From Acidimicrobiales bacterium (GTDB lineage Bacteria; Actinomycetota; Acidimicrobiia; Acidimicrobiales; Bin134): a stretch of 64,000 bases of DNA. The notes under the pieces are model-generated. The model searched no databases and had not been told where the DNA came from. It saw only the letters and a program-made list of their open reading frames with translations. The stretch is taken from the NCBI GenBank assembly GCA_965115985.1, contig OZ220474.1:2974707-3038706 (forward strand), given 5' to 3'. The translations under genes and the position numbers were made by a program. This document shows, piece by piece, positions 43,423-60,122 of the stretch (positions within the stretch are counted from its first letter, which is position 1; each line of letters starts with the position of its first letter).

Positions 43423-43863
43423 TCAGCAGTCGGCGCAGTGGCCGTGGAGGTCAAGGCTGTGGTGGGCGGGGGTGAACCCGGTGCGCTCGGCGATGTCGTC
43501 CAGGCTCCGGTGAACGAGATTCTCAAGATCGTTCTCGAGATGGATGTCCTCGATGGTGCCGCAGCCGATGCAGATCATGTGATGATGGTGCCCCAGCAGG
43601 GGCTCGGCCAGTTCAAAGTGGACCCGATCCCCCCCGGAGACGATACGACGGACGACCCCGCTGCGAACCAGCAGATCCAGATTGCGGTACACCGAACTCG
43701 GGGCCAAATCCGGGTCGGCCGCCACGATGTCGGGCAGGGTCATCGGCTGGTCGGAACCGTGGATCACCTCGATGAGCTTCCTCCGGCCTTTGGTGTAGCG
43801 ATGATCCTGGCGGGCCAGCTTGGCTCCTACCTGTAGGTGAAGTTCGTTCAAATAGCTTCTCAT
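43423..43863 (-). CDS. zur: Fur-family metalloregulator, probably Zur
   Basis: 146 aa from ATG 43863 (alternative 43896). Winged-helix part: RYTKGRRKLIEVI...MTLPDIV. Metal sites: HHHHMICIGCG...HGHCADC. It is divergent from a znuA-type gene. Confidence 0.8.
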   Translation of the reverse strand: MRSYLNELHLQVGAKLARQDHRYTKGRRKLIEVIHGSDQPMTLPDIVAADPDLAPSSVYRNLDLLVRSGVVRRIVSGGDRVHFELAEPLLGHHHHMICIGCGTIEDIHLENDLENLVHRSLDDIAERTGFTPAHHSLDLHGHCADC

Positions 43864-43924
43864 ATGAGGGTATTCGAGGATTTGACCGCCATCCATGCCC
43901 AGTATTTCACCTGGGCCTGGCTGG

Positions 43925-43975
43925 TTGCGTCCATTGTTCGACATTTGTATAATAATGAGAATGATTACTAATATC
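43925..43975. promoter_or_regulatory. AT-rich divergent control region: candidate -35/-10 promoter plus Fur/Zur-box-like dyad overlapping the znuA start
   Basis: This is among the most AT-rich stretches of the window. TTGCGT (43925-43930), then 17 nt, then a perfect TATAAT (43948-43953). The 19-mer aataatgagaatgattact (43951-43969) matches 14/19 positions of the classical Fur box GATAATGATAATCATTATC. An ATG at 43961 lies 7 nt after the -10 box, so the mRNA could be leaderless. Confidence 0.5.
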
Positions 43976-45367
43976 AAAAAGGCGTTGGCCGGTGGCTTTG
44001 CTGCTCTGGCCGTTCTGGCCCTGGTGGCATCGGGTTGCGGTAACGATGACGATGCCGCCGACGGCCAAGTATCGGATGATCGGCCGACGGTGATGGCCAC
44101 CACCTCAATCTGGGCCGATGTGGTGACCAACGTGGCTTGTGACGGGCTGGCCGACGTGGTGACGCTGATTCCCCCGGGCGGGGATCCTCACGCCTTTCAA
44201 CCTTCCTTGCAGGACCGGGGCCGCATGGACGATGCCGTCATGATCGTGGCCAACGGTCTTGACTTGGAGGAGGGTGTGATCGACACCATCGAAGCGGTTG
44301 AGGAGGCCGGCACGCCGGTATTTCACGTAGCCGATCACGTCGAGACCATCGGATTCGCCCCCGGTATGGAGTTGGACCACGACGACGAGGACGATCACGG
44401 CGACGATCACGGCGACGAGGACGATCATGGCGACGAGGACGACCATGGCGAGGAAGATGGTGACCACGGCGAGGAAGAGGCTGACGATCATGGCGACGAG
44501 GACGATCATGGCGACGAAGATGGTGACCACGGCGAGGAAGAGGCTGACGATCATGGCGACGAGGACGATCACGGCGAGGAAGAGGCTGACCACGGCGAGG
44601 AAGAGGCTGACGATCATGGCGACGAGGACGATCACGGCGAGGAAGAGGCTGACGATCATGGCGACGAGGACGATCACGGCGAGGAAGAGGCTGACGATCA
44701 TGGCGACGAGGACGATCACGGCGAGGAAGAGGCTGACGATCATGGCGACGAGGACGATCACGGCGAGGAAGAGGCTGACGATCATGGCGACGAGGACGAT
44801 CACGGCGACGAGGACGACGGCCATGGGCACGACCATGGGGCGGAGGACCCCCATATTTGGTTCGATCCGGTGAAGGTGGCGGGCGCGCTGCCTGCGCTCG
44901 GCGAGGCTCTGGGGTCGGCTGCTGGTCTGGATGCTGATGCACTGGATGCTTGCGTGGCGGCATACCGGGAGGAACTGATGGCCCTCGACGCGGAGGTCGA
45001 GAGAATCCTGGAACCGATTGCCCAGGAGGATCGCCTGATGGTCACCAACCACGATGCCCTGGGATATTTCGCCGACCGCTACGGATTCCGGCTGATCGGG
45101 ACGGTTATCCCCGGCGGCTCATCCATGGGCACGGCCAACCCGGCCAACCTTCAGGAGCTGGTGGAACTGATCGACCAGACCGGAGTGCGGGCCATATTCG
45201 CCGAGTCCACGCACAGTTCCCAGGACGCGGAGGCTCTGGGCCGGGAGGCCGGTGTGCAGGTTGTGGTGCTGGATACCGGGTCGCTGGGTCCCGCGGGCAG
45301 CGATTCGGGCACCTACATAGGCTTCATGCGGGCCAACGCCCATAGGATCGCCATCGGCCTCGGCTGA
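43955..45367 (+). CDS. znuA: Metal (Zn/Mn)-binding lipoprotein of an ABC importer, ZnuA/TroA family, with giant His/Asp/Glu-rich loop
   Basis: Lipoprotein signal MRMITNIKKALAGGFAALAVLALVASGC. Cluster-9 SBP blocks: VMATTSIWADVV, GGDPHAFQPS, DPHIWFDP, VTNHDALGYFADRYGF. Between them lies an acidic/His segment of about 150 residues. Alternative starts are 43961 and 43895. Confidence 0.88.
   Translation: MRMITNIKKALAGGFAALAVLALVASGCGNDDDAADGQVSDDRPTVMATTSIWADVVTNVACDGLADVVTLIPPGGDPHAFQPSLQDRGRMDDAVMIVANGLDLEEGVIDTIEAVEEAGTPVFHVADHVETIGFAPGMELDHDDEDDHGDDHGDEDDHGDEDDHGEEDGDHGEEEADDHGDEDDHGDEDGDHGEEEADDHGDEDDHGEEEADHGEEEADDHGDEDDHGEEEADDHGDEDDHGEEEADDHGDEDDHGEEEADDHGDEDDHGEEEADDHGDEDDHGDEDDGHGHDHGAEDPHIWFDPVKVAGALPALGEALGSAAGLDADALDACVAAYREELMALDAEVERILEPIAQEDRLMVTNHDALGYFADRYGFRLIGTVIPGGSSMGTANPANLQELVELIDQTGVRAIFAESTHSSQDAEALGREAGVQVVVLDTGSLGPAGSDSGTYIGFMRANAHRIAIGLG
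44383..44835 (+). repeat. In-frame repeat region encoding the (DHGDEDDHGEEEAD)n loop; five perfect 42-bp units
   Basis: gaggaagaggctgacgatcatggcgacgaggacgatcacggc occurs at 44597, 44639, 44681, 44723 and 44765. More divergent copies lie upstream from about 44383. Confidence 0.93.
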
Positions 45368-45402
45368 CCGAATTTCCGGGCAAGCTGCGGTAGGTTCGGG
45401 AG

Positions 45403-46266
45403 ATGGAGTTCTTGACCAACCCGGTCGAGTGGTGGGTCGAGCCCTTCATCGACAACATCTTCATGCGCAATGCCCTGTGGTCGGGACTGCTGGCCGTTTT
45501 GACCACCTCGACGGTCGGAACCTGGGTGGTGCTCCGAGGGATGAGCTTCTTGGGCGAAGCTCTGGCTCACGGGGTGCTGCCCGGCCTGGCCATCGCTTTC
45601 ATCATCGGGGGTGATACCACCATTGGTGCGTTGGTGGCCGCCCTGGCCATGGTGGGCGGCATCAATATCGTTCGTAGTCACTCGCCGCTGCCCGACGACA
45701 GCACCATCGGGTTGCTCTATGTGGGATTCCTGGCCACGGCGGTGGTGATCATGTCCACCAGTTCGGGGGCGTACTCCGGTGAGCTCACCCGGTTCCTGTT
45801 CGGTTCGATCACCGGGGTGACGGACAGTGATCTTGTCCGCCAGCTCGTCATTGCCGGGATCGTGATGGTCGGGGTGGTGGTGCTGCACCGGGCGTTTCTG
45901 GTCTTGACCTTCGACATGGTCCAGGCTCGCCTCTTCGGATTCCGCCCCCAGTTGACCCACGCCGCTCTGCTGGCGCTTCTGGCCATCTCGATCGTGGCGT
46001 CGTTCCAAGCCGTCGGAAATCTGCTGGTGTTCGCGTTCTTGGTGGCCCCTCCGTCGGCCGCGGCCATGCTGGTGCGCCGGATCCCGGCAATCATGGTCGT
46101 CGCAGTTGGTCTCGGTGTGGTCTCGGTGGTGGTCGGTCTGCTCATCAGCTACCACCACGACACCGCGGCCGGTGCCACCATGGCGCTGGGGGCGGTGGTG
46201 CTGTTCCTGGTCGCTATTTTGATCCGGGCCTGCTTGGGGTCCTACAACGTCAGGTTGGCCACCTAG
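45403..46266 (+). CDS. znuB: ABC-3 family metal importer permease
   Basis: 287 aa with 8-9 TM segments: FMRNALWSGLLAVLTTSTVGTWVVLRGMSFLGEALAHGVLPG. Confidence 0.9.
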   Translation: MEFLTNPVEWWVEPFIDNIFMRNALWSGLLAVLTTSTVGTWVVLRGMSFLGEALAHGVLPGLAIAFIIGGDTTIGALVAALAMVGGINIVRSHSPLPDDSTIGLLYVGFLATAVVIMSTSSGAYSGELTRFLFGSITGVTDSDLVRQLVIAGIVMVGVVVLHRAFLVLTFDMVQARLFGFRPQLTHAALLALLAISIVASFQAVGNLLVFAFLVAPPSAAAMLVRRIPAIMVVAVGLGVVSVVVGLLISYHHDTAAGATMALGAVVLFLVAILIRACLGSYNVRLAT

Positions 46267-46370
46267 CTCGGGGGTTCGTCACCTGATCAGGGGGATTGGC
46301 CACCTAGTTCGGGGGTTCGTCACCTGATCAGGGGGATTGGCCACCTAGTTCGGGGGTTCGTCACCTGGTT
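46257..46370. repeat. 41-bp x2.7 tandem repeat beginning with the znuB stop codon
   Basis: ggccacctag occurs at 46257 (TAG 46264-46266), 46298 and 46339. Confidence 0.9.
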
Positions 46371-46407
46371 GAGGAACTGGGTGCCGGGCCGTCCAGGGCG
46401 GGGCCCA

Positions 46408-46902
46408 TCACCGGGCAGAGCCCATCGCCAGGGTGGCGGTCCCGGCCAGCACCGGGTGGGTGCCGTCACGAGCCAGCCAGACGTCGCACTCCACCGTGCC
46501 GTCGTCGCCCACCGAGGTGACCGAGCCACCGGCCTCCAGGCGATCACCGGCGAACACGTTGTCCAAGAAACGCACCCGTATCCGCCGGATGTGCTCGGTA
46601 CCACCGGCCCAGTCGGCCAGCATGTTCATCACGTAGGCCATGTTGTTGGGTCCCTGGTTCACGGGTTGATCCCCCATGCCCAGTTCCCGCACCGCCTCGA
46701 CGTCCCAGTGGATGGGGTTGGGGTCGCCGAGCAGGGCGGCCATGGTCTTCATTTTCTCGGCGTCCACCGACTCGATCACCATCCGGGGCAGATCGTCGCC
46801 CACCGACGGTGTCGGCCGCTTCGACGCACCGGGCGCAGGCGACCCGGACGGGGCCGGCCGGGACGGATCCTCGCCCACCGACGGTGTTGATACTGCGCTC
46901 AT
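46408..46902 (-). CDS. MaoC-like (R)-hydratase hotdog-fold protein
   Basis: From ATG 46902 the sequence reads GDPNPIHWDVEAVRELGMGDQPVNQGPNNMAYVMNML (hydratase 2 motif region). The Pro/Ser-rich N-terminus has a 75-bp-spaced direct repeat (46796 and 46871). Confidence 0.82.
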   Translation of the reverse strand: MSAVSTPSVGEDPSRPAPSGSPAPGASKRPTPSVGDDLPRMVIESVDAEKMKTMAALLGDPNPIHWDVEAVRELGMGDQPVNQGPNNMAYVMNMLADWAGGTEHIRRIRVRFLDNVFAGDRLEAGGSVTSVGDDGTVECDVWLARDGTHPVLAGTATLAMGSAR

Positions 46903-47357
46903 GTCGATCTCCGAGGATAGATGAAGGAGTTGGACACCACTCCGGCCACGTCGCCGTCGGGGGCCACCACCTCCAGCCGGAAGGCCACTATGTCGAAGGT
47001 GCCGGTCCGGGTGCCCTGCTTGCGCACCGCGCTGGTGATTTGCCCCCGCACGGTGTAGGTGGTGCCGACCTCCAGGGGGCGGAGTTGGCGGAGGTCGGAT
47101 TCTCCGAACATGGGGCCGTCGTCGGCCGACGCCCGGCACAGGGTGAACAGCTCGTCGATGCTCAGGCCCATGCCGGCCATGGCCGCGTAGTAGCAGAACA
47201 TGGGGTGGGCGATACCGTCGGTGTGCTGGGGCGCACCCACCACGTCGTTGGTCAGCCATACCCGCCAGGGCTCGACGGTGTAGGTACCGCCCGGGAACTG
47301 CCACCCCACCAGGGCCTCCAGTTCCTCGACGGTCGGAATTGCGGGTAGATCGCTCAT
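46899..47357 (-). CDS. Hotdog-fold protein, MaoC N-terminal-like partner subunit (HadA-like arrangement)
   Basis: 152 aa, overlapping the downstream MaoC gene by ATGA. It has the FAS1-DH-N/UPF0336-like pattern (WQFPGGTYTVEPWRVWL...HPMF). Confidence 0.7.
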   Translation of the reverse strand: MSDLPAIPTVEELEALVGWQFPGGTYTVEPWRVWLTNDVVGAPQHTDGIAHPMFCYYAAMAGMGLSIDELFTLCRASADDGPMFGESDLRQLRPLEVGTTYTVRGQITSAVRKQGTRTGTFDIVAFRLEVVAPDGDVAGVVSNSFIYPRRST

Positions 47358-47423
47358 CGGTTCACCACCGGCAGGCCTCGGGGTGGATCGCTCATCGGTT
47401 CACCACCGGCAGGCCTCGGGGAT
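47348..47423. repeat. 38-bp x2 tandem duplication of the LLM-stop / hotdog-start junction
   Basis: gatcgctcatcggttcaccaccggcaggcctcgggg occurs at 47348 and 47386. The start used is in copy 1 (CAT 47355-47357) and the stop used is in copy 2 (TCA 47400-47402). Confidence 0.93.
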
Positions 47424-48482
47424 GGCCGGATGGTCGGGGGCGGGGTACTTGCGGTGCAGAGGTTGTACCACCTCCTCGCCGAATCGCTGGATCTGCTCCC
47501 GGGTGGCCTCGAAAGAGGGGCCGGTGACCATGCGGAACTGCACGGTGAAGTATTGCACCCCCAGATCCTCGTGGTACTGCTCCAAGCGCTCCCGGCACTG
47601 GGCCGGAGAACCCACCACTATGTGCTCGCGGGCCGATTCGGTGGTGATCTTCTCCGGGGAGTCGAACTCGGGATGGTGGGCCAGGATCCCCTGCTCGCAG
47701 TAGAAGCGCATCTCGGGTACGTAGTGGGTGCCGTACTGCTCGGCGGCCTGCTCGAAGCTGTCGGCCACCCACGCCTTGCGCATCAGGACTACGAACGGCT
47801 CCTTGCCATGTTCGATGGCTCTGGCCCGATAGGCCCCGGCCTGTTGGTCCCAGGTCTCCTTCAGGATGGGGAAGTCGTCGCAGGTCCACGACTCGGCGTA
47901 TGCCCCGCACCGCTCTATGGCGGCGGGCAACTGGCCACCGCCCCAGAACGGGAATCGGGGTTGCTGGTAGGAGTTGGGCGACAAAAGGCCGTCGCTCACC
48001 CGGTAGAAGTCCCCGTCCCAGTCGAACCGCTCGCCCTTGGATTGCAGGGCTTTGTCGATGATGGCCACGTTCTCCAGGTAGCGGCCCAGCATTCGCTCGG
48101 GCGGAACCCCGAACTGCCCCCAGTAGCCGGCGTGGAAGCCCCGGCCCCAGGTCATGTACAGCCGACCCCGGGAAAGGTTGTCGATGATGGCGCACTGCTC
48201 GGCCACCTGCATGGGGTGGTAGAGGGTGTTGACCAGGCAGTAGGAGCCGATGGCCACCCGAGTGGTCTCCCGGGCCAGGATCATCAGCAGATTCAGCGGG
48301 GAGCCGAAGTAGGACTCGGTTCGACCGTGGCGGTCGGGCACCTGGATGGAATGAAACCCCGACCGCTCGGCCAGTATGCCCTCCTCCACCATGGCGTCGA
48401 GGACGTCGGCGGCGTTGTCGGGGGTGGGCAGGGGCTGGTCGTAGGACCCGTGGTTGGTGTCGATCAGATAGCCGATGCGCAA
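47400..48482 (-). CDS. LLM-class (luciferase-like) flavin-dependent oxidoreductase
   Basis: 360 aa: ERSGFHSIQVPDRHG, YHPMQVAEQCAIIDNLSRGRLYMTWGRGFH. Confidence 0.85.
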   Translation of the reverse strand: MRIGYLIDTNHGSYDQPLPTPDNAADVLDAMVEEGILAERSGFHSIQVPDRHGRTESYFGSPLNLLMILARETTRVAIGSYCLVNTLYHPMQVAEQCAIIDNLSRGRLYMTWGRGFHAGYWGQFGVPPERMLGRYLENVAIIDKALQSKGERFDWDGDFYRVSDGLLSPNSYQQPRFPFWGGGQLPAAIERCGAYAESWTCDDFPILKETWDQQAGAYRARAIEHGKEPFVVLMRKAWVADSFEQAAEQYGTHYVPEMRFYCEQGILAHHPEFDSPEKITTESAREHIVVGSPAQCRERLEQYHEDLGVQYFTVQFRMVTGPSFEATREQIQRFGEEVVQPLHRKYPAPDHPAIPEACRW

Positions 48483-48644
48483 GAGGTACTCGCTTTCGAT
48501 GGATGGTGGTCGCCGGTCATCCTCCCCACCTTATTGGTCGCCGCCCGTGGATGTCTCCGGCACTCGGCCCAAAAGGCAGTAGCCGCCGCTCCCTGGGCCT
48601 ACGCTGAGCCTCGCGTACAATTCGAGTCGGGCAAAGGAGTACAC

Positions 48645-49412
48645 GTGGCCATTCACACCGAGATCGATGGGCAGGGCATTGCCGTGGTCACCATGGACAA
48701 TCCCCCGGTGAACGCCCTCAACATCGCCGACACCTACAAGCTGGCCGAGGTCTTTCGCGGTTTCAAGCACGATCCCGAGGTGCGGGTTGCGATCCTGACC
48801 GCGGTGGGACGGGGGTTCAACGCCGGGGTGGACATCAAGGAGATGCAGGCCATGGAGGGCTTCGAGGGCGTTCTGGGCACCGGCGACGCCTGTTACGAGG
48901 CCTTCGGCGCGGTGTACGACTGTGCGGTGCCGGTGGTGGCGGCCGTTCAGGACTTCTGTTTGGGTCTGGGCATCGGCTTGGCCGGCAACTGCGACCTGGT
49001 GGTGGCCGCCGAGGGAGTCAAGTTCTCCATGCCCGAGGTGGACAATGGTGCCCTGGGAGCAGCCACCCACACCGCCCGGCTGGTGCCGGAGAAGGTGATG
49101 CGGTGGATGATGTACAGTTGCCAGCCGGTGGCCGCCGAGGACCTGCACCGGTGGGGAACCGTGCTGAGCGTGGTTCCCGGCGACGAGCTCATGGCCGAGG
49201 CCCGGCGAGTGGCCGGGGTGATCGCGTCGAAGCCGCCCGGTGTCATCCGCAAGGCCAAGTGGTCGATCAACGGGATCGACCCGGTGGACGTACACCGCAG
49301 CTATCGCTTCGAGCAGGGGTTCACCTACGAGCTCAACCTCATGGGGGAGGGCGACAAGGCTCGGGAGGCGTTCATCCGGGGAGAACGGGAGTCCAACAAG
49401 GCAGCCGGATAG
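48645..49412 (+). CDS. Enoyl-CoA hydratase/isomerase (crotonase) family protein
   Basis: The GTG at 48645 is preceded by AAGGAG. Sequence: IAVVTMDNPPVNAL, GRGFNAGVDIKE, GLGIGLAGNCDLVVAAE. Confidence 0.88.
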   Translation: MAIHTEIDGQGIAVVTMDNPPVNALNIADTYKLAEVFRGFKHDPEVRVAILTAVGRGFNAGVDIKEMQAMEGFEGVLGTGDACYEAFGAVYDCAVPVVAAVQDFCLGLGIGLAGNCDLVVAAEGVKFSMPEVDNGALGAATHTARLVPEKVMRWMMYSCQPVAAEDLHRWGTVLSVVPGDELMAEARRVAGVIASKPPGVIRKAKWSINGIDPVDVHRSYRFEQGFTYELNLMGEGDKAREAFIRGERESNKAAG

Positions 49413-49426: not shown

Positions 49427-49640
49427 CATCGTAATCGTGGGGGCCGGTTCGGGGGTTGGGGCATGAACGGGGCGACGGCCTCCCAGCCGGTCGATACCGT
49501 CGTCGTGGGGGCCGGTTCGGGGGTTGGGGCATGAACGGGGCGACGGCCTCCCAGCCGGTCGATACCGTCGTCGTGGGGGCCGGTTCGGGGGTTGGGGCAT
49601 GAACGGGGCGACGGCCTCCCAGCCGGTCGATACCGTCGTC
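49427..49640 (+). repeat. 68-bp x3.1 tandem repeat of the GMC oxidoreductase 5' end (start codon plus first 22 codons)
   Basis: atgaacggggcgacggcctcccagccggtcgataccgtcgtcgtgggggccggttcgggggttggggc has its ATG at 49463, 49531 and 49599. Confidence 0.95.
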
Positions 49641-51140
49641 GTGGGGGCCGGTTCGGCGGGGTCGGTGCTGGCTGCCCGGTTGTCCGAGGATCCCGCTCGC
49701 CGGGTGGTGCTGCTCGAAGCCGGTCCCGATCATGGTGACCGCCCGCCCCCGGAACTGGCCGACGTCACCGAGTCGTCCCACCCTGATCATGATTGGGGCG
49801 ATGAGGTGCGTCTGCCCGGGGGTCGAACCCAGCACTATCCCCGGGGACGGGTGGTGGGCGGCAGTTCGGCGGTCAACGGCGGCATCGCCGTCCGGGCCAT
49901 GCCCGCCGATTTCGATGCCTGGGGATTTCCCGAATGGCGGTGGGAGGCGATTCTGGATGGCTTCCGGCGACTGGAATCCGATCCTGACGGCGAGGATCGC
50001 TGGCACGGTCGAAACGGCCCGTTGCCCATTGTCCGCACGCCCGAGGCCGATCTCCACCCGGTTCATGTCGCCTTCTACGAGGCGTGCCGGTGGGCCGGTC
50101 ACGGCTTTGTCGCCGATCACAACGCCCCGGATTCCACCGGTGTGGGTCCGCTGCCCCGCAATCGCCGGGGTCGGCAACGGGTATCGGCGGCGGACGCCTA
50201 CCTGACTCCCGAGGTCCGGGGCCGCCCCAACCTGGAGGTTCGAGGCGGTTGCCCGGTTTCGTCGGTGCGGTGGAGCGGCCGCCGGGCCGTGGGGGTAAAC
50301 GTGGCCGGCAGCCACGGGCTGGAGGCCGTCGTCGCCGGGGAGGTGATAGTGGCGGCCGGGGTGGTGCAGTCCCCGCTGCTGTTGTGGCGTTCCGGTATCG
50401 GCCCGGCCTCGGAGCTGGCCGGTTTGGGGCTGGACGTCGTGGTGGACCGCCCCGGGGTGGGGGCGAACCTCTCCGATCACCCCGCGATCTATCAGTTCGC
50501 CGTACCCAAGCCCCGGATGGTGTCCCCGAGCGACGTCACCATCCAGACCCTATTGCGGTTCACCAGCTCGACCGGCCCTACCAACGATCTCCAACTGTTC
50601 CCCGTAGGGGTGATCGACCTGTCGGCCAACCCCCGGCGGCGGGCCGAGGCCGGCGGAGTGGACACCGTCTTCGCGTTGGTGGCGGCCCTGCAACGGGTGG
50701 AGAGCCGGGGGTCGGTGCGACCGGTATCGGCCGATCCCGGGTATCCGCCCGCCATCACCTATCCGTTCATGGCTCACAAGCCCGACCGGGATCGACTGGT
50801 CGAGGCTCTGGAGCTGGGGCTGGAGCTGCTGGGCTCGCCCCCGTATCAAAACGTGGCCGACGGTCCCTTGTTCCTGCCCGACAAGCTCGACCGTGACGAA
50901 CTGTCCGCCCATGTGTTCGCCAATCATGTGGCCTTCTATCACGGAGCGGGCACGTGTGCGATGGGCTCGCCCGACGATTCCGGCGCGGTGGTCGGCCCCC
51001 ACGGGCAGGTGTGGGGCACCGAGGGGCTGCGGGTGTGCGATGCCTCCATCATCCCCGAAACCCCGAGAGCCAACACCAACCTGAACGTCATCGCCATCGC
51101 CGAGCACATGTCCGACCTGCTCCGAAAGGGTGGGCCATAG
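49599..51140 (+). CDS. GMC-family FAD oxidoreductase (choline dehydrogenase-like)
   Basis: MNGATASQPVDTVVVGAGSAGSVLAARLSEDP..VLLEAG (Rossmann GxGxxG). GMC signature regions GG.S.VNG and a C-terminal HGAGTCAMG. Confidence 0.9.
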   Translation: MNGATASQPVDTVVVGAGSAGSVLAARLSEDPARRVVLLEAGPDHGDRPPPELADVTESSHPDHDWGDEVRLPGGRTQHYPRGRVVGGSSAVNGGIAVRAMPADFDAWGFPEWRWEAILDGFRRLESDPDGEDRWHGRNGPLPIVRTPEADLHPVHVAFYEACRWAGHGFVADHNAPDSTGVGPLPRNRRGRQRVSAADAYLTPEVRGRPNLEVRGGCPVSSVRWSGRRAVGVNVAGSHGLEAVVAGEVIVAAGVVQSPLLLWRSGIGPASELAGLGLDVVVDRPGVGANLSDHPAIYQFAVPKPRMVSPSDVTIQTLLRFTSSTGPTNDLQLFPVGVIDLSANPRRRAEAGGVDTVFALVAALQRVESRGSVRPVSADPGYPPAITYPFMAHKPDRDRLVEALELGLELLGSPPYQNVADGPLFLPDKLDRDELSAHVFANHVAFYHGAGTCAMGSPDDSGAVVGPHGQVWGTEGLRVCDASIIPETPRANTNLNVIAIAEHMSDLLRKGGP

Positions 51141-51207: not shown

Positions 51208-52191
51208 ATGACTGCGGCGGCCCGGCATGCCTACGACACCCATGACGACCTGGTGGAGGACTACTACGAGAGGGGGTGGACCGACGGGTTGCCGGTCGTG
51301 GCTCCCACTCCCGACAAGGTGTCCGCCTTCCTGGAGCACGCCGGATTGCCGGGAGACGAGGTGTTGGGGGCGGTGCCCACCCGAGAGGTGATCTGCACCG
51401 CGGAGCAGGCCGCGGTCAACGCGGTCATGGCCGGCTGTCTGACCGAGTACTTTCCCGCAGTGGTGGCGGCCGTGCGGGCCCACCTCCACCCCAAGGGGAA
51501 CTGCCACTCCACCACGGGCACGTTGTCGGGCGCGGCCCAGGCGGTGATAATCAACGGCCCCGTCCGCAACCGGTTGGGGGTGGTCTCGGGAGCGGGTTGC
51601 TTCGGGCCGGGGTTCCGGGCCAACGCCACCATCGGTCGGGCGCTGCGGCTGGTGATCCGCAACGTGTGCCGAGGCATCCCCGGGTTCTTGGACCGGGCCA
51701 GCTTCTCCACCCCGGCCCGCTACTCCTTCTGCTTCGGGGAGAACGAGGAGGCCTCCGACTGGTTGCCGCTGCACGTGCAGCGGGGGCTGGCTCCCGACCG
51801 GAGCGCGGTGACGGTTCATTCCCTGATGAAGATGGTCGAGGTCACCGATTTCATCAGCCGCACCGCCGAGGGGGTGTGCAACTCCCTGGTGACCCAGATA
51901 CGGGCCAACGGCATTACCGGGGACTCCTGGCTGGGCGAGGACGGCAACGTGGTCGTGGTGGTAGGTCACGAGCACCATCGGTTCTTCATCGAGGAGGGAT
52001 GGTCGAAGGCCGACATCCAGGATTATCTGTGGCCCCGGCTGAACGCCCCCGCCACCAGCGCCACCGACCGCATGGCTCGCATCGGCAAACCGGAGGGCAT
52101 CCTGATCGTGGCCGCCGGGGGAGCGGGCATGGGGGCAAGCTGGCTGTTGCTGCCCCACCTGGCTCTGGCCATCACCGAGCCCATCGTCTGA
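51208..52191 (+). CDS. Conserved hypothetical protein (no family recognised), immediately upstream of the UGSC gene
   Basis: 327-aa ORF with globular, non-repetitive composition (GWTDGLPVVAPTPDKV..., NCHSTTGT...). It has no recognisable motifs. Confidence 0.7.
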   Translation: MTAAARHAYDTHDDLVEDYYERGWTDGLPVVAPTPDKVSAFLEHAGLPGDEVLGAVPTREVICTAEQAAVNAVMAGCLTEYFPAVVAAVRAHLHPKGNCHSTTGTLSGAAQAVIINGPVRNRLGVVSGAGCFGPGFRANATIGRALRLVIRNVCRGIPGFLDRASFSTPARYSFCFGENEEASDWLPLHVQRGLAPDRSAVTVHSLMKMVEVTDFISRTAEGVCNSLVTQIRANGITGDSWLGEDGNVVVVVGHEHHRFFIEEGWSKADIQDYLWPRLNAPATSATDRMARIGKPEGILIVAAGGAGMGASWLLLPHLALAITEPIV

Positions 52192-52211
52192 GCGCCGGCT
52201 AGTATTGCCTC

Positions 52212-52760
52212 ATGTCAGCTCTCATTGGTCTTGATCCCACATCCGGCCCCCTCGACAGGGTCGGCGATCATGATTTCGTCCCCCGACCGGCCAGCCTGGA
52301 TGGGGCGGTGGTCGGTCTGGTGGCCAACGGCCTCGGCGAGGGGGAGATCTTCCTGGATGCCCTCTACGACGAGTTGGCCGGGCTGAGCGACCTGAAGGCC
52401 CCGCTGAAAGTGGTGAAGGGCTCGGTGTCGATCCCGCCCGATCCGGGGGATTGGAGCCGTCTGACCGAGGAGGCCACGGTCGCCATCACCGGCTTCGGCG
52501 GTTGAGGAAGCTGTAGTGCCCGCAGTTTGCGGGACGCAGTGGAGCTGGAGTGGGCCGGTGTACCCAGCGTCGCCATAGTCCACGAGCAGATGAGGGGCTC
52601 GGCCCAGGCCATCGCCCGGGTGAGCGGATGCCCCGACTACGAGTTCCTCGCCGCCGACTATCCCTGGATCCCCACCGCCATCTGGTCCAAGGAGGAATGC
52701 CTGGAACTGGCCGAGATCATGGCCCCCAAAGTTCTGGCCACCCTCACCGGCCGGCACTGA
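52212..52760 (+). CDS. UGSC-motif selenoprotein candidate (in-frame TGA 52503-52505 read as selenocysteine)
   Basis: Track ORFs 52212-52505 and 52527-52760 share one frame and are separated only by TGA. The joined product reads ...ATVAITGFGG-U-GSCSARSLRDAVELEWAGVPSVAIVHE.... The second ORF has no ATG or GTG start and no Shine-Dalgarno, and a hairpin follows the TGA. Confidence 0.7.
52506..52546 (+). promoter_or_regulatory. Candidate bacterial SECIS element
   Basis: A stem cccgca/tgcggg (52519-52524 / 52528-52533) with apical loop GTT begins 13 nt after the UGA. Possible lower helices are agct(52509-52512)/agct(52543-52546) or ctg/cag. Confidence 0.55.
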
Positions 52761-52863: not shown

Positions 52864-54255
52864 TCAGTTGGTGAAGGCCGCGGAGGATGGGCGGACGGCG
52901 AGGGCTCCGAGTACGCCGATGGTGGCGATGGCCATGCCTACCCAGAAGCCGTTGGCGAAGGCGGTGCTGGTGCTCTCCTCTCCTTTGGCCAGTACCAGCA
53001 CCTGAATACCCACCGCGGTGCCCAAGCTGGTTGACATTTGGAACATGCCGGTGGCTGCGCCCAACTCCCGCAGGGGCACCGTACCGGCCAGTGCCACTTG
53101 ATAGGCGGGGCCGGCGGTTCCCAGTCCGGCTCCCGAGAGGCCGAGGCCCAGGATCACCAGGGCCACCGCCGAGGTCAACGCACTGCCCAGGAATGCGGCC
53201 ATGGCCAGTACCACCAAAAGGGTGCCGACCATGACCGGGAAGCGTTCCCCCCGGGTGCGGGCCAGAAATCCGCCCACCGGCGAGGCCAGGGTGAAGCTCA
53301 GCAATCGGGTCACCAGAACCATGGTGGCCGCGGTGAGGGAGTAGCCGTATCGTTCCTGCAACAGCAGCGGGGTCAGCACGAAACCGCCCATGTAGGCGGC
53401 GTTGGAGGCGGCGGAGGCGACGATCGGGCCGCTGAAGTTGGGCAGTCCGAACCATTCCAGCGGGACCATGGGGTGGGCCGAGCGACTCTCCACCGCCACG
53501 AAGGCGGCCACTGCGACCGGAGTGGCCAACAGCAGGCCCAACGGCAGGGGATGGGAGAAGCCCCGGGCCGTCCCCTGCGACAGGCCCAGCATGAGGGCGA
53601 CCACTGCGGTCACCAGGGTGGCCGCGCCGGCCATGTCCAGTGGCTTGGGCTCGCTGCGGGTACCGGGTCGCACCACCAGAACCACTGCCACCAGCCCCAG
53701 GGCGGCAATCGGGGTGTAGACGGCGAAGACGGCCCGCCAGCCGAGGGCGTCCACCAGGGCCCCGCCGGTGAACAACCCGAAGGTCGGGCCTCCCACGGCG
53801 GCGAACTGGAACCACCCCATGGCCCGGGCCCGATCCCGGGGGTTGAACGCGGCCAGCATCAAGGCGTTGCCGTTGGGGAGCATCATCGCCCCGCCGACCC
53901 CCACCAGCAGGCGGAACACGATGAAGCTGACCGCGTTCCAGGCCAGCCCGCTGAGGCCGGTGGCCACGGCGAGCAGTGCCAACCCGATGATGAGCATCCG
54001 CCGGTGGCCGTACATGTCGCCCAGCGATCCCGACAGGGTGGTGCCCGCAGCCAGACCCAGAAACGGAGCGGTGAGCGCCCAGGACAGGGTGGCTTGGGTG
54101 GTGTCCAGCGCCTCGGCGATCTCGGCCAACGAGGCCCCGATGATGGTCATGGTCGAGCCGAACACCACCGAGCCCACCAGCACGATGCGCAGCAGACGCC
54201 ATGCATAGGCGGGGTCGTTCGGGCCGCCCGGCTCTGCCGGGGGTGAGGCGGTCAC
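52864..54255 (-). CDS. MFS transporter, 14-TM DHA2 (EmrB/QacA-like) type
   Basis: 463 aa: LRIVLVGSVVFGSTMTIIGASLAEIA, GSLGDMYGHRRML, about 14 hydrophobic segments. Confidence 0.85.
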   Translation of the reverse strand: MTASPPAEPGGPNDPAYAWRLLRIVLVGSVVFGSTMTIIGASLAEIAEALDTTQATLSWALTAPFLGLAAGTTLSGSLGDMYGHRRMLIIGLALLAVATGLSGLAWNAVSFIVFRLLVGVGGAMMLPNGNALMLAAFNPRDRARAMGWFQFAAVGGPTFGLFTGGALVDALGWRAVFAVYTPIAALGLVAVVLVVRPGTRSEPKPLDMAGAATLVTAVVALMLGLSQGTARGFSHPLPLGLLLATPVAVAAFVAVESRSAHPMVPLEWFGLPNFSGPIVASAASNAAYMGGFVLTPLLLQERYGYSLTAATMVLVTRLLSFTLASPVGGFLARTRGERFPVMVGTLLVVLAMAAFLGSALTSAVALVILGLGLSGAGLGTAGPAYQVALAGTVPLRELGAATGMFQMSTSLGTAVGIQVLVLAKGEESTSTAFANGFWVGMAIATIGVLGALAVRPSSAAFTN

Positions 54256-54305: not shown

Positions 54306-54626
54306 TCAATCCTTCAGCTCAACGAGAATTTCGTAGTAGGGCTCGGTGCCGGTGTTGACCGCGGTCTCGATGCCGCCGCGGGAGATGAACATCGTCTGGC
54401 CGGGGATCACGTCGCCCTCCACCGAACCGGAGAACTCCCCGGCGGTGTCGGGCTCGAACTCGCCGGTGATCCTGTCGCCGGCCACCTGCACGAGCACGTA
54501 GTCGTGATCATGGCGGTGAAGGTCGGACCGCTGGCCCGGGTCCAGGCGCATCTCCCAGATGCGCACCCGGTCGTTCTCCATCAGCAGCTTGGTGGCCACG
54601 TCTCCCAATGCTCTTTGTGCGCTCAT
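54306..54626 (-). CDS. Cupin-domain protein
   Basis: From ATG 54626: 106 aa, LMENDRVRIWEMRLDPGQRSDLHRHDHDYVLVQV...G....F...G..ETAVNTG. Confidence 0.75.
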   Translation of the reverse strand: MSAQRALGDVATKLLMENDRVRIWEMRLDPGQRSDLHRHDHDYVLVQVAGDRITGEFEPDTAGEFSGSVEGDVIPGQTMFISRGGIETAVNTGTEPYYEILVELKD

Positions 54627-54645
54627 GGCTGCATCGTAGGCGATT

Positions 54646-54750
54646 GCGGGTTGCCACCGGAGCGCCGCCAAAGGACTTGCAGGGCCGCCCCGTCTTTTTG
54701 CTTCTGGCGGCGCGGCGGCGGGTTGCCACCGGAGCGCCGCCAAAGGACTC
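54646..54750. repeat. 32-bp core repeated at 72-bp spacing upstream of the cupin gene
   Basis: gcgggttgccaccggagcgccgccaaaggact occurs at 54646 and 54718. Confidence 0.88.
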
Positions 54751-54765: not shown

Positions 54766-56829
54766 TCAGTCGGGGTTGTTTAGAGCCCTTTGGGCTCCGG
54801 GTGCGGTGATGTGGACGGCGGCGGTCAGCCCGGCGAGCGTGGCCGCGGCGATGGTGGCGGCGGCGATCACCGCCGAAGGGGCGTAGTTGGGAGGGACCGA
54901 CCCGTCCACCAGGGCATAGGCCACGGCGCCGATGGTGCCCACGGCGGTGCCGCCGAGGCCGACGATGGCCACCAGCGCGAACGACTCGGCGGCGGCCAGA
55001 CGGCGAATGGTTGCGAGTTTGGCTCCCAGGGCGATGAGGCGTAGCCGGGTTCTGGCCGATTGCGAAGCGTTGGTGGCAACCGACAACAACAAGGCCGCGA
55101 ACGCACCGACACCGGCGATCTTGAAAGCGGCGAGAATCCAGGGAACCGCCCTGTCCTCCTTCTGCACGCCGTCGGCCGGGCTCCTCACCGAAAGGTCGGG
55201 GCCTGCACGGTTCACCACGAATTTCCGGACGACCCGTTCCGCCCTCAGCTCATCGGGGGCGACCAGGAGGCGGTAAGCGAACCTTGTTGCGGCCGGTGGG
55301 GCGGTGGAGCCGGTTCCATGCTTGGCGAAAGCACCGGCGGCTTCGGGGGCCACCATGATCCCATCCGGCCCGCATTTTTCGAACTCCACGTACCGACCGA
55401 GGCTCGAGCAGTCGCCAACCCAGGTGAAGGTCGGGGCGGCGTTGCCCATGGGTTCGGTTCGGTAGACGTCCAGGAAGTCGCCACCGGCTTCGGTTTCGAG
55501 CCATCTCAGCTCGGAGTTGTCCAGGTCGCCGTTGACTATGATGGCCGCGACGGTCGATTGGGGTGGTTCGTCGTCGCCTTGTCGGGCTACCGCGATGTAG
55601 GACGCGGCGACCGGGATGAGAACGGCGACACCGGCCAGCGCCATGAGCGAACGGGCCGAGGTGGCCGCGTTCCAACTCAACCGCCGACCCACCAGCTTGG
55701 CCAGAGGGGAGGCTCCTTTGGCGATGGCGGCTCCGAGGTGGTTGACAATGACGGGCAGGGCGAAAGTTACGCTCAGCGACGCCGCCAAAAGCCAGGTGAG
55801 CAAAAGACGCACTGCGGCTTCGCCCGATTGGGTGGTGGAGTAGAGGATCAGGCCGATCGAACCGGCCAACGGCAGAGCCCGCCACAGAGCCGGGGATTGC
55901 GGGATTCGAGACGTTGGGCGCGACCCGACTCGGCTGCCGAGATGACGAAGACCGAGCAAACCGGCAAGCACGGTCACAACGGCTGCGGTGACCGCGACGA
56001 CCCACAGAGGAACCGCCATATCACCCCTAAACACTCGCTCGCCCACCAGCGGGACCGATGAGAGCTTCGGCGCGACCCAGTACCAGGCTCCCGCAGCAAG
56101 GACCGCGCCCGGTAACGCCACCACGGCCGTGCTGAGAACAGAGAGGCGAGCCAGCGTCAATCGAGGGGCACCAAGAAGGTGCAGTACCTGGAGTCGGCGC
56201 TCCAGCCCGATGGAGACCGGCCCCAGCGCAGCCCGCAAAAACCCAACACCGATGACAAGGACCAAACCAAAAGTGGCCAGAGCCACGGTCGGGGCCCCAA
56301 CAGCCGACTTGATCCCGGACCACTCCGAACCGCTTTCTGCGGTTCGGCGCGTTCGCAGGGGGACATCGGGGCCGACAATACGATATGCGAGAAGCTCGTC
56401 GGCGGCACCGATACCGGCTTTCGCGATAACACCGGGGTTGTCACCGAAGCGGCCGGTCAACACCGGTTCGGTGCGTATGCGACGGTCAAGCTCGGGGCTG
56501 ACGAACCAATCTCCTACCTTCGCGGTGGGCGGCACCCCCGGAATCAGTGCCCCGGGGGTCTCTATGCGCCAGTAAGTGATGGAGATGGACTCACCGTTGA
56601 CCGAATCGTAGTTGAAATCGGAGCTGAAGGCCGCAGGCTCGCCCTCGACAGCATGCCTAAAAGTGCGGCCGATTGCCCGATCGTCAATCCGTTCGGCGAG
56701 CAGGGTGGCACTGACTCCAGCCAAAGCGACCACGGTCACGACCGTGGTCGCAGCCGCGAGCACCAGGCTCTTGAGCCGGTTTGTCCAGCCCCCGCCCCAA
56801 CCGGCAGCCAAAGCGATGGACCAGATCAC
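54766..56829 (-). CDS. FtsX-like (MacB-type) ABC transporter permease
   Basis: 687 aa, multi-TM, with large extracytoplasmic loops. It overlaps the upstream ATPase gene by 4 nt. Confidence 0.8.
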   Translation of the reverse strand: MIWSIALAAGWGGGWTNRLKSLVLAAATTVVTVVALAGVSATLLAERIDDRAIGRTFRHAVEGEPAAFSSDFNYDSVNGESISITYWRIETPGALIPGVPPTAKVGDWFVSPELDRRIRTEPVLTGRFGDNPGVIAKAGIGAADELLAYRIVGPDVPLRTRRTAESGSEWSGIKSAVGAPTVALATFGLVLVIGVGFLRAALGPVSIGLERRLQVLHLLGAPRLTLARLSVLSTAVVALPGAVLAAGAWYWVAPKLSSVPLVGERVFRGDMAVPLWVVAVTAAVVTVLAGLLGLRHLGSRVGSRPTSRIPQSPALWRALPLAGSIGLILYSTTQSGEAAVRLLLTWLLAASLSVTFALPVIVNHLGAAIAKGASPLAKLVGRRLSWNAATSARSLMALAGVAVLIPVAASYIAVARQGDDEPPQSTVAAIIVNGDLDNSELRWLETEAGGDFLDVYRTEPMGNAAPTFTWVGDCSSLGRYVEFEKCGPDGIMVAPEAAGAFAKHGTGSTAPPAATRFAYRLLVAPDELRAERVVRKFVVNRAGPDLSVRSPADGVQKEDRAVPWILAAFKIAGVGAFAALLLSVATNASQSARTRLRLIALGAKLATIRRLAAAESFALVAIVGLGGTAVGTIGAVAYALVDGSVPPNYAPSAVIAAATIAAATLAGLTAAVHITAPGAQRALNNPD

Positions 56830-57527
56830 CGGCTACGTCGCACCAGACGGCCGTGGGCAAGGTCATATACCTCTCCCATCTGGTCGGCAACCGACTGGTC
56901 ATGGGTGGAAACCACCAGAGTGGCCCCGGAATCGGCAGAGGCAATCCGCAGCACCGACATCACTTGTCGCGAACCGGCCTCGTCGAGCGAACCGGTCGGC
57001 TCGTCGCACAAGATTACTTCGGGGCGAGTAACCAGAGCTCGGGCCATTGCAACCCTTTGGGTCTCACCCCCGGACAACTGAGCCGGCCACGCCCTCGGAT
57101 TGTCGAAACCAACAGCCTCAAGCGCATCATTTACGAGATCGGCCGAGGGCCTATCACCTCTAAGCAACAGCGGAAGCACCAGGTTCTCACCAACCCTTAA
57201 TTCCGGCAACAACTCACCGAACTGGAAAACCATCGAGAGCTTGCTCTGGCGCAGAACTGCCCTGTCTTTTGCATGAGCTCGTAGAAGATCCAAACCGGCA
57301 ACGCTCACCCGACCACCATCGGGAACAATGATCCCCGCCAGAATGTGCAACAAGGTTGTCTTACCCGACCCACTCGGACCCATAACCGCTACCTGACTCC
57401 CCCTCGGAGCATCCCAGCAAAGCCCATTCAACACCCGCCGCTCCCCAAAAGAGAGAACAATGTCCACACACGAAATGGCGGAATTCGGGGTGGCGTTCAT
57501 AGGATTTCTGCTCTCGAGCTTATGCAA
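56826..57527 (-). CDS. ABC transporter ATP-binding protein (MacB/LolD-like)
   Basis: Walker A GPSGSGKTT, signature LSGGETQR, Walker B ILCDEPTGSLD. It is visibly lower in GC than its surroundings. Confidence 0.93.
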   Translation of the reverse strand: MHKLESRNPMNATPNSAISCVDIVLSFGERRVLNGLCWDAPRGSQVAVMGPSGSGKTTLLHILAGIIVPDGGRVSVAGLDLLRAHAKDRAVLRQSKLSMVFQFGELLPELRVGENLVLPLLLRGDRPSADLVNDALEAVGFDNPRAWPAQLSGGETQRVAMARALVTRPEVILCDEPTGSLDEAGSRQVMSVLRIASADSGATLVVSTHDQSVADQMGEVYDLAHGRLVRRSR

Positions 57528-57622: not shown

Positions 57623-59311
57623 TCAGCGGGGCACGACATAGCCCGATTGTTCCCGGTCCCAGGTATCGGGGGTGATGCCCTGCTCGCGTAGTTTGAACTT
57701 CTGGACCCGCTCGGAGGGGGTCTTGGGCAGTTCGTTCGCCCAGCGTACGAAGCGGGGTACGGCGAAATGGGCCATGCGGGGCACGCAGAAGTCGAGCAGG
57801 GCGACCTCGGAGAGCTCGTGGTCGGCCTTGAGCACCACCACGGCCATCACCTCCTCCTCGCCCAGCTCGGAGGGCACGCCGATCACCGCCGACTCCAGTA
57901 CCGCTTCGCAGGTGTTGATCACCGCCTCCACCTCGTAGGAGGAGATGTTCTCCCCCCGGCGGCGCACGCAGTCCTTCATACGGTCGATGAACGTCAGATA
58001 GCCGTCGGAGTCCAGGCGGCCCCGGTCGCCGGTATGGAACCACAGGTTGCGAAACGCCTCCACCGTGGCATCGGCCATGTCGAAGTAGTGGTCGAACATG
58101 ACGTAGGGCTTCTTGGGACGCACCACGATCTCGCCCGCGGTGCCGGCGGGAACGGGGCGGTCCTCGGAGTCCACCACCGCCACGTGATAGAGGGCCGATT
58201 CCCGCCCGGCGGTGCCGATCCTGCGCACTCCCCGGCGGTTCTCGGTGGCGATGGCTGCCTCGGTCATGCCGTACACCTCGGTCAGGTGGACCCCGAAGCG
58301 CTCCTCGAACCGCTCCCATATCTCCACCGGGCAGGGGGCCCCGAAGCCGTTGCGCACCGGGTTGTCGGCGTCGTCGGGCCGCTCGGGCTGCTTCCACAGC
58401 ATCATCAGGAGCCCGCCCTGGTAGTTGAACGCGGTGATGCCGTCGGCCCGGCAGCGGTCCCAGAAGCGGCTGGCCGAGAACCGCCGGTCCATCACCAGTC
58501 GGGCGTCGGCCTCCATGGCGCACATCACGCTGGTGTACTTGGCGTTTATGTGGAACAGCGGGAAGGCGGTGTAGAGCACGTCGTCGGCGTGGTAGCCCAC
58601 CAGATCGACGGTGTGGCGGGCCAGGTTCAGATTGGCCTCGTGGCTCAGCATCACCCCCTTGGACGGGCCGGTGGTGCCCGAGGTGTACAGGATCACCGCG
58701 GTGTTCCGGTAGTCGATGGCGGGCTCGGGCGGCGAGGAGCCGAGGTACAGATCGGCCAGCTCGTGGACGGTGACATGGCCGGGAAACTCGGGGGTGCCGG
58801 TGGCGCTTCCCCCACGCCCGTCGGCCCGGGTGGGGGCACCGCCGGTGACATGGCCGGGGAACTCGGGGGTGCCGGTGGCGTTCGGGCCGGGCGGCCGATT
58901 CACCACCACGTGCTCGAGGTCGGGCAGGCTCCTGGCCGCCTCGGCGATGCGGTCCAGGTACTCGGCGTCGCACACCACCGCCCGCGAGCGGGACTGGGCC
59001 ACCAGGTATTCCAGCAGGTGGCCCCGGTAGGCCTGGTTGATGGGCACCTCCACCACTGCGGCCTTGGTCATGGCGAACCAGGCGTCTATGCACTCCAGCG
59101 AGTTCTGCATCATCAAGCACGAACGGTCGCCCGGCTCCAGCCCCAGCGAGACCAGACCGGCCGCCAGCCTGTCCGAGTCCAGATGAACCCCGACGTAGGA
59201 CTTGTCCCGCCCCTCCACGGTCAGCGCCCGCCGCTCGCCGTTCACCTCCGCCTTGTGGCGAATCCAAGCCCCGATGGTGGGGGGATCGTCGGGGGTGCCG
59301 GTCGAACTCAT
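57623..59311 (-). CDS. AMP-dependent acyl-CoA synthetase/ligase
   Basis: YTSGTTGPSKGV (AMP-binding motif), YGMTE, HTGDRG, and a C-terminal K in LPKTPSERVQK. The preferred start is ATG 59311 (the ORF runs to 59362). Confidence 0.9.
   Translation of the reverse strand: MSSTGTPDDPPTIGAWIRHKAEVNGERRALTVEGRDKSYVGVHLDSDRLAAGLVSLGLEPGDRSCLMMQNSLECIDAWFAMTKAAVVEVPINQAYRGHLLEYLVAQSRSRAVVCDAEYLDRIAEAARSLPDLEHVVVNRPPGPNATGTPEFPGHVTGGAPTRADGRGGSATGTPEFPGHVTVHELADLYLGSSPPEPAIDYRNTAVILYTSGTTGPSKGVMLSHEANLNLARHTVDLVGYHADDVLYTAFPLFHINAKYTSVMCAMEADARLVMDRRFSASRFWDRCRADGITAFNYQGGLLMMLWKQPERPDDADNPVRNGFGAPCPVEIWERFEERFGVHLTEVYGMTEAAIATENRRGVRRIGTAGRESALYHVAVVDSEDRPVPAGTAGEIVVRPKKPYVMFDHYFDMADATVEAFRNLWFHTGDRGRLDSDGYLTFIDRMKDCVRRRGENISSYEVEAVINTCEAVLESAVIGVPSELGEEEVMAVVVLKADHELSEVALLDFCVPRMAHFAVPRFVRWANELPKTPSERVQKFKLREQGITPDTWDREQSGYVVPR
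58769..58885 (-). repeat. 75-bp x1.5 in-frame duplication inside the acyl-CoA synthetase, TGTPEFPGHVT...(25 aa)...TGTPEFPGHVT
   Basis: ggtgacatggccgggRaactcgggggtgccggtggcg occurs at 58769 and 58844. Confidence 0.9.
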
Positions 59312-59339
59312 CGAGATTCCCTGCCGCCGCCGACCCGTC

Positions 59340-60122
59340 TCAGCCCAGAACTTCGGGAGCATCGCGCAACAAACGCCGAACAGCCCCCTCCCAGTAGTAC
59401 CGCACGGTCATGTGGTGACTGTTGATGGCCGCCTTGAGCGGGGGGCGCTGCTCGGGAGGCACGGGCACCGGGGTTTGCCCGGCGATCATGGCATCGTGGT
59501 TGAGCCTGCACACCCGCTCGAAGTTCGATGCCCGATAGACGGCCTGCTCGGTGGTCTCGCCGGTGATGAGCACCCCGTGGTTGGCCAGGATCACCGCGGT
59601 GGCCTCTCCAACCGCGTCGGCCAGGTGCCGTCCGCCGGAAGCGTCGTCCACCCCACCGGTATAGGTGCCGAACAGGGCGATGTCGCCGTCGAACATGCAG
59701 GCCTGCTGATCGGTGATCTCCGGCAGTCGGTGCAGGGTGGAGAGCAGGCTCCCGTAGTAGGGGTGGTTGTGGATCACCACCCGGGCATCGGGGCGGGCTC
59801 GGTGCAACTCGGTGTGAATGAACACCGCCGGGGTCACGTCCCAGCGGCCCTCCAACACCTCGCCGTCGGCATCGATCACCAAAATGTCCGATGCGGTGAT
59901 CTCGCCCCACCACAGCCCGTAGGGGGTACACCACATGGAGCCGTCATCGGCCTCGTCGCGGACCACGGTGATGTGGCCGGCCACATCCAGGGCGTATCCC
60001 TCGGCATCGAGAATCCGGGCCGCACAGGCCATCTTCTGCGGCACGGTCAGGGAATGGTCCAGGCCGGGCATCACCCGGGGAAATGCGCTCTGCCCGGCGA
60101 TGGCGGCATCGAGCTTGCCCAT
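59340..60122 (-). CDS. Class II aldolase/adducin-domain protein
   Basis: From ATG 60122: GHITVR, IHTELHRARPD..VVIHNHP, ILANHGVLITGET. Confidence 0.85.
   Translation of the reverse strand: MGKLDAAIAGQSAFPRVMPGLDHSLTVPQKMACAARILDAEGYALDVAGHITVVRDEADDGSMWCTPYGLWWGEITASDILVIDADGEVLEGRWDVTPAVFIHTELHRARPDARVVIHNHPYYGSLLSTLHRLPEITDQQACMFDGDIALFGTYTGGVDDASGGRHLADAVGEATAVILANHGVLITGETTEQAVYRASNFERVCRLNHDAMIAGQTPVPVPPEQRPPLKAAINSHHMTVRYYWEGAVRRLLRDAPEVLG

Follow-up and report, generated by a model that had tools for sequence, protein, structure and literature searches.

Two-subunit reductases that depend on selenocysteine (Sec) are exemplified by the glycine/sarcosine/betaine and D-proline reductases, in which the selenoproteins GrdB/PrdB have GrdE/PrdA as partners, trxB-trxA lie in the operon, Sec sits in a UxxC motif on one subunit and a larger second subunit binds the substrate. 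The UGSC family, first reported from metagenomes in 2007-2008, counted since then among the most abundant environmental selenoprotein families and abundant in aquatic metagenomes (PMC1976440; PMC2398784; PMC13188914), has been treated as a selenoprotein of unknown function (PMC1976440; PMC2398784; PMC9312934; PMC13188914), and a 2026 review still places it among the selenoproteins with largely uncharacterized functions. Here, we analyse a UGSC gene and the gene for a 327-amino-acid (aa) protein that precedes it, both found in a 64,000-nucleotide (nt) stretch of the genome of an Acidimicrobiales bacterium (GCA_965115985.1, contig OZ220474.1), hereafter the window; FAM is our label for the 327-aa partner protein and its family. 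The window protein resembles the described UGSC family in its UGSC motif, its in-frame TGA and a score well above the Pfam cut-off. Our collective results make a partner role of the 327-aa protein to UGSC well supported, and we consider it fairly probable that the pair represents two subunits of one thioredoxin-fed (seleno)cysteine reductase.

The initial annotation, made from the letters of the window, had named a lack of conserved linkage between the two families as the outcome that speaks against a functional pair; the gene neighbourhoods revealed the opposite, as linkage is conserved at 66 of 80 loci selected by FAM and at all 13 loci selected by UGSC alone. The former come from a scan of one genome per species with the 327-aa family, which yielded at least 600 stretches; of the 600 taken up, 599 were confirmed as relatives, the best 80 being kept as loci. 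A tblastn search placed the 66 UGSC genes within the 4-kb flanks of the family gene, which nearly all of them abut; 65 share the strand of the family gene, with 51 lying downstream of it and 14 upstream. Since an 8-kb flank makes up, by our estimate, about 0.2% of a 4-Mb genome, chance would provide fewer than one co-occurrence in 80. The reverse sample comprised five plasmid records (two Natrinema haloarchaea, Arthrobacter, Roseovarius and Embleya) found by tblastn with a typical UGSC protein, in every one of which FAM is the direct neighbour and shares the strand of UGSC (E 1e-91 to 1e-115), and eight chromosomal loci of full-length Cys-type UGSC proteins, Advenella kashmirensis and several megabase contigs among them, at all of which FAM abuts or overlaps UGSC (E 1e-97 to 1e-113). 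In two relatives on long contigs, one of them 68% identical and the other from a Deltaproteobacteria metagenome-assembled genome, a UGSC gene that the gene caller had split at the TGA follows the FAM gene directly, and the flanking genes differ. Moreover, at most 4 of 133 upstream neighbours share any one Pfam family, and the oxidoreductase and transporter genes that flank the pair in the window are conserved only in two Poriferisocius-like genomes. Given that the flanking genes are not conserved, the pair itself is the unit, and many bacteria as well as some archaea (haloarchaea) carry it as neighbouring or fused genes.

Fusion of the two proteins into a single chain was observed in both orders: UGSC precedes FAM in the database proteins P0184 and P0204 and follows it in P0143, which stops at the Sec codon. 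A search with P0204 recovered scores of like fusions, several of them from isolates (Dactylosporangium, Nocardioides marmoriginsengisoli and Paraburkholderia caffeinilytica). Among the best 150 representatives of clusters at 50% identity, 28 are UGSC fusions (25 UGSC-FAM, one UGSC-FAM-NifU and two FAM-UGSC), 106 consist of FAM alone, and the remainder are FAM-FAM (7), FAM-NifU (4), Trx-FAM (4) and NifU-FAM (1); two scanned loci, L042 and L070, hold fusions with the Sec codon read through. At the Sec codon, gene callers break UGSC into two fragments, of about 98 and 77 aa, and in Sec-type UGSC-FAM fusions the called starts fall after the TGA (L001, L003, L004, P0144, P0229 and P0284-P0321). Such calls imply that many database entries are truncated and that fusion counts are underestimated. 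The two proteins also diverge together, the pairwise divergence of FAM and UGSC over 62 loci being correlated with r = 0.80, a value as high as which was not reached in any of 2000 Mantel permutations. A fusion of UGSC with an unnamed conserved domain containing a conserved Cys has a one-line entry, 'UGSC/Unknown_1', in Figure S1A of the 2008 selenoproteome of the Global Ocean Sampling (PMC2398784), the sole hint of a partner in the literature consulted. This Unknown_1 domain is probably FAM; the operon linkage, partner family, thioredoxin context and census presented here were not reported in that paper.

Judged from the alignment of UGSC genes, the in-frame TGA of the window (Table 1) is very probably a Sec codon. 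It encodes residue 98, in the motif GFGG-U-GSC (context AITGFGG-U-GSCSARS), and a UGSC profile based on more than 60 loci matches the gene on either side of this codon. The corresponding column of the 66 linked UGSC genes holds TGA in 62 and TGC/TGT in 4; Cys forms of UGSC are found in Paraburkholderia caffeinilytica, Advenella kashmirensis, Roseovarius, Arthrobacter, Nocardioides and Natrinema. When C is substituted for U, the window protein scores 129.3 bits against PF24696 (UGSC family, cut-off 25) and 80.4 bits against NCBIfam NF041046, that is, under the equivalog cut-off of 125; together with GFGG in place of G-x-G-D before U, this score marks the protein, on sequence grounds, as a member of a divergent subgroup. 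RNAfold returned the same hairpin, at the same distance from the TGA, in 67 UGSC genes with TGA, and 64 of these sequences, aligned without gaps, were used in a covariation test. Pairing in the 7-bp stem (columns 16-22 with 26-32) holds for 94.2% of cells, and changes on both sides of it occur in 37 cells compared with 6.8 in shuffles, none of 500 shuffles reaching the observed number. The covariation score of 0.335, against 0.12, becomes far lower when the partner is slid by 1-3 columns. Compensated stem variants include CCGCAG/UGCGG, GUGCAG/UGCAC, GAGCAG/UGCUC and GUGGAG/UCCAC, and the loop bases G23 and U24 are invariant. These features are consistent with the hairpin being a selenocysteine insertion signal (SECIS), and a covarying hairpin of the form expected of a bacterial SECIS argues that the UGSC gene is not a broken frame. 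The tRNA genes detected in the window are tRNA-Asn, tRNA-Met and tRNA-Val only.

The pair is also present in a cultured Firmicute, Neobacillus bataviensis LMG 21833 (L076, NZ_AJLS01000097.1, 3335-4981), where a Sec-type UGSC (GSAD-U-GSC) lies directly upstream of FAM and a family III CoA-transferase downstream. This strain would be a convenient host for testing Sec incorporation.

How the two proteins might fit together is suggested by a structural model of the natural fusion P0204 (UGSC-FAM-NifU-like, 630 aa), which reached a predicted local distance difference test score (pLDDT) of 91.5 and a predicted template modelling score (pTM) of 0.87 and is uncertain in the linkers only. As this pTM is too high for independent placement of the domains, they would be expected to pack in a defined way into one compact body. 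Taken together, the fusions and the compact fused model suggest that the two proteins are subunits of a single enzyme, more than that one of them is a substrate protein diffusing freely. Hence, of the proposal in the initial annotation that the 327-aa protein could be the substrate or redox partner of the UxxC protein, the partner role is upheld by linkage and fusions, and a freely diffusing substrate appears less likely. The PDB matches of the P0204 model are weak (template modelling score (TM) to target 0.45-0.56) and comprise flavodoxin, WrbA, the flavodoxin domain of flavodiiron proteins and PTS IIB; these matches are missing when FAM alone is searched and therefore belong to the UGSC part. 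The model exhibits a repeated strand-helix pattern, with the U/C motif in the stretch that leads from a strand into a helix, and a profile search of PDB sequences gave only chance-level matches for UGSC. A thioredoxin-like fold was suggested for UGSC in 2008 (PMC2398784); it is not supported here, since the fusion model gives modest flavodoxin-like matches instead.

We postulate that UGSC would be a small alpha/beta domain of flavodoxin-like topology, with a Sec-x-x-Cys pair where a helix begins, cycling between selenol/thiol and selenenylsulfide, and that the 327-aa protein would be the larger subunit, in which D26, N139, R144, E178 and at least one of C77 and C175 may form the substrate site. 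Reducing power would probably be delivered by the thioredoxin system, in trans in this genome; in relatives it would come from a thioredoxin-like CxxC domain that is fused on, from neighbouring trxB-trxA genes or from a NifU-like CxxC domain. Both the direction of electron flow and the catalytic role of the 327-aa subunit are what we infer. The accessory elements themselves were observed directly. An N-terminal thioredoxin-like domain with a C-P/A-T-C motif is fused to FAM at 15 of the 80 loci, with UGSC still downstream; Arthrobacter sp. ERGS1:01 carries overlapping genes in the order trxB-trxA-FAM-UGSC, its UGSC having a NifU-like tail; Roseovarius sp. THAF8 has the order FAM-UGSC-trxB; and in Paraburkholderia, Nocardioides, Advenella and others, the pair is followed by a small gene or domain of the NifU-like CxxC kind (PF01106, E 5e-7). 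The window contains no fused thioredoxin-like domain, trxB-trxA or NifU-like element.

The substrate would probably be a small organic acid or a derivative of acyl-CoA, which would undergo reduction or reductive cleavage, a substrate class suggested by the genes that recur in the neighbourhood. In the window, genes of fatty-acid or organic-acid catabolism lie around the pair (41810-49412 and 57623-62246); they encode an acyl-CoA dehydrogenase, a MaoC-type hydratase, a luciferase-like monooxygenase, an enoyl-CoA hydratase and two acyl-CoA synthetases of the AMP-binding type. Similar genes recur near the pair elsewhere, among them those for AMP-binding ligases, acyl-CoA dehydrogenases, Tct/TRAP/MFS transporters and GntR/IclR/LysR regulators, and the commonest neighbour is a family III CoA-transferase (8 loci). 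A conserved third gene was sought and none was found: trxB, trxA, DUF6282 and phosphosulfolactate synthase are sporadic, and NifU-like elements are lineage-limited. On the Natrinema plasmids NZ_CP084884.1 and NZ_CP100446.1 (L108 and L110), a Cys-type pair is followed in both by a DUF6282 gene, and a phosphosulfolactate synthase-like gene lies near the pair in Natrinema zhouii, Arthrobacter and L070. These neighbours hint at organosulfur metabolism. Within the window, the MaoC-like hydratase is accompanied by a second, overlapping hot-dog-like open reading frame (ORF; 46408-47357).

The initial annotation could name no family for the 327-aa protein, and we likewise obtained no match in Pfam, NCBIfam or PADLOC, permissive thresholds included; the core of 87 FAM relatives has no Pfam match either. 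The family is nonetheless large, with more than 7,900 homologues, all unnamed, in a collection clustered at 90% and 4,653 representatives at 50% identity; its closest homologues (92-84% identity) are from Candidatus Poriferisocius and other Acidimicrobiia. Over 550 distinct family domains, D26 (470 of 471), R144 (485 of 485) and E178 (481 of 484) are near-invariant, as are G27, G76, N139, G143 and W185, and C77 (in MAGC), C175 (in FCFGE) and H256 are conserved at 94%, 94% and 92%, respectively. The family has no invariant Ser or Lys. The Cys/His motifs quoted in the initial annotation (NCHSTTGT, GAGCFGPG and RNVCRG) are present in the protein; their conserved appearance did not hold across the family, as C99 is kept in 29%, C131 in 40%, C154 in 37% and H100 in 65%. 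Both columns are aligned in 482 domains: C77 and C175 occur together in 426 of these, C77 alone in 29 and C175 alone in 27, and no domain lacks both. Some genomes hold two or three family copies close together (L057 at 1665-5416, L010, L027, L043 and L070); in L057, L027 and L043 the two cysteines are divided between copies, with C175 alone in one and C77 alone in the other, and single-chain FAM-FAM proteins (P0129, P0136 and others) have retained C77 and lost C175 in each half. Paired copies with split cysteines may reflect heterodimers with specialised sites.

An AlphaFold2 model of the 327-aa protein, made from an 87-sequence alignment, has pLDDT 95.3 and pTM 0.94. The Foldseek comparison of such a model, which the initial annotation had recommended, returned no convincing PDB match: several independent entries of Toblerone-fold cyclic amide hydrolases head the list and YjgF/RidA comes next, all weak, the Toblerone matches having E 7e-4 to 0.1, probability at most 0.8, TM about 0.21 and a root mean square deviation above 11 Å. 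A profile search of PDB sequences found no relative of the family, and profile self-comparison found no internal three-fold repeat.

Several of these observations weigh against a two-subunit thioredoxin-fed reductase. About 6% of FAM members do without C77, and about 6% without C175; the best PDB fold match (E = 7e-4, TM 0.21) is too poor for the chemistry of any known enzyme to be carried over; at 14 of the 80 family loci, even a profile search detects no UGSC within 4 kb; trxB/trxA adjoin the pair in few loci and not in the window; and the link to acyl-CoA catabolism is, given the upstream neighbour counts (at most 4 of 133 per Pfam family), a tendency rather than a fixed operon. The main rival explanation, which we regard as unlikely, is that the 327-aa protein is a non-redox enzyme, e.g., a hydrolase or isomerase of YjgF/Toblerone-like units, and that UGSC is not its co-catalyst but a dedicated reactivating or regulating reductase, which has the 327-aa protein as its client and keeps C77 or C175 reduced. 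This would fit the constant retention of one or the other cysteine, the near-invariant D, N, R and E, which would suit acid-base chemistry on a carboxylate or amide, and the fact that the sole PDB fold matches, weak as they are, are to Toblerone-fold cyclic amide hydrolases and YjgF/RidA. However, the similarity amounts to a TM of about 0.21, the invariant Ser/Lys needed for the Ser-Lys dyads of the hydrolases are missing, the self-comparison reveals no three-fold repeat, and the costly Sec is kept in 62 of 66 linked genes, which would be unusual for a purely regulatory thiol switch.

The occurrence of a NifU-like CxxC domain or gene with the pair in several lineages, and of several Cys/Sec motifs in one complex, could also point to a module that handles a metal, an iron-sulfur cluster or selenium/sulfur, in trafficking or assembly, instead of reducing an organic substrate. 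We consider this very improbable, given that the NifU-like element is missing from the window and from 79 of the 80 scanned loci, that the neighbours are catabolic enzymes and transporters rather than cluster-assembly genes, and that FAM has only two conserved cysteines, either of which can be lost. An adjacency devoid of functional meaning, or a UGSC frame that is merely a gene broken by a stop codon, has in its favour only that gene callers split the gene at the TGA and is contradicted, to the point of being practically negligible, by the linkage in both samples, the fusions in both orders, the TGA in the same column of 62 genes, the covarying hairpin and invariant GU loop downstream of it, and the match of both gene halves to the family profile.

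The arrangement of the locus is given in Table 1. The co-directional order of the two genes, their spacing, the upstream GMC oxidoreductase and the convergent transporter (major facilitator superfamily, MFS) downstream were all as initially annotated, the two flanking genes being confirmed by Pfam and NCBIfam. A promoter and terminator scan of the spacer between the pair found no promoter-like or terminator-like site. Neither protein of the pair matches a defence model in PADLOC, and an anti-phage defence reading was rejected on this ground.

Table 1. Features of the FAM-UGSC locus, in window coordinates (position 1 is the first letter of the window).
Feature	Position	Strand	Basis or remark
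GMC oxidoreductase	49524-51140	+	upstream of the pair; MftG-like, below threshold
FAM gene (327 aa)	51208-52191	+	ATG-started ORF
Intergenic spacer, exactly 20 nt	52192-52211	+	sequence
UGSC-family selenoprotein gene	52212-52760	+	182 residues and stop at 52758-52760; PF24696
In-frame TGA, read as selenocysteine	52503-52505	+	UGSC translation; aligned column in linked genes
Hairpin, interpreted as bacterial SECIS element	52510-52540	+	folding and covariation
Hairpin core stem	52518-52524 paired with 52528-52534	+	apical GU at 52525-52526
DHA2-type MFS transporter	52864-54255	-	downstream of the pair, convergent
FtsX-like permease (687 aa) and ABC ATPase (233 aa)	54766-57527	-	beyond the MFS gene

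The GMC oxidoreductase reaches 345 bits against the model of the mycofactocin dehydrogenase MftG (cut-off 387). Its gene is 76% conserved in the two Poriferisocius-like genomes, where an alanine dehydrogenase gene separates it from the pair. The FtsX-like permease and ABC ATPase have no apparent relation to the pair, and a 145-aa ORF (54306-54743) is without a Pfam match.

UGSC is thus almost never alone but paired with, or fused to, a large unannotated family, some members of which are wired to thioredoxin. An orphan, abundant selenoprotein thereby becomes a defined two-subunit system that can be approached experimentally in cultured organisms, and a family of more than 4,600 clusters lacking a Pfam or NCBIfam model is flagged. 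We tentatively speculate, as a possibility somewhat short of an even chance, that the pair is the core of an unrecognised, widespread class of thioredoxin-dependent selenoenzymes, separate from the glycine/proline reductases, whose catalytic subunit has a fold without a solved relative and which serves aerobic organic-acid/acyl-CoA catabolism in bacteria and haloarchaea. If true, such a class would explain the abundance of UGSC in aquatic metagenomes.

Compared with known systems, the Toblerone-fold hydrolases (cyanuric acid hydrolase and barbiturase) and YjgF/RidA resemble the 327-aa protein in that they are the only PDB folds returned for its model, weakly; unlike the Toblerone-fold hydrolases, FAM has neither conserved Ser-Lys dyads nor an internal repeat. 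With reductases of the Msr (methionine sulfoxide), ArsC and phosphoadenosine phosphosulfate (PAPS) types, the pair would share the logic of a thioredoxin-fed thiol/selenol relay, some FAM members having a fused thioredoxin-like domain, but no sequence or fold relationship was found between these enzymes and the pair. The glycine and D-proline reductases failed both homology tests, as two UGSC proteins gave no match to Pfam GRDB and the FAM partner none to Pfam Gly_reductase at E up to 10; membership, which on the partner side would mean the pyruvoyl-forming proprotein GrdE/PrdA, was therefore rejected. By analogy, the likeness to these enzymes would be one of logic, with a Sec UxxC subunit beside a larger, proposed substrate-binding subunit; trxB-trxA lie in the same operon in some relatives of the module (Arthrobacter) and are absent from the window. 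The hosts differ as well, those of the FAM-UGSC pair being largely aerobic heterotrophs and haloarchaea rather than amino-acid-fermenting clostridia.

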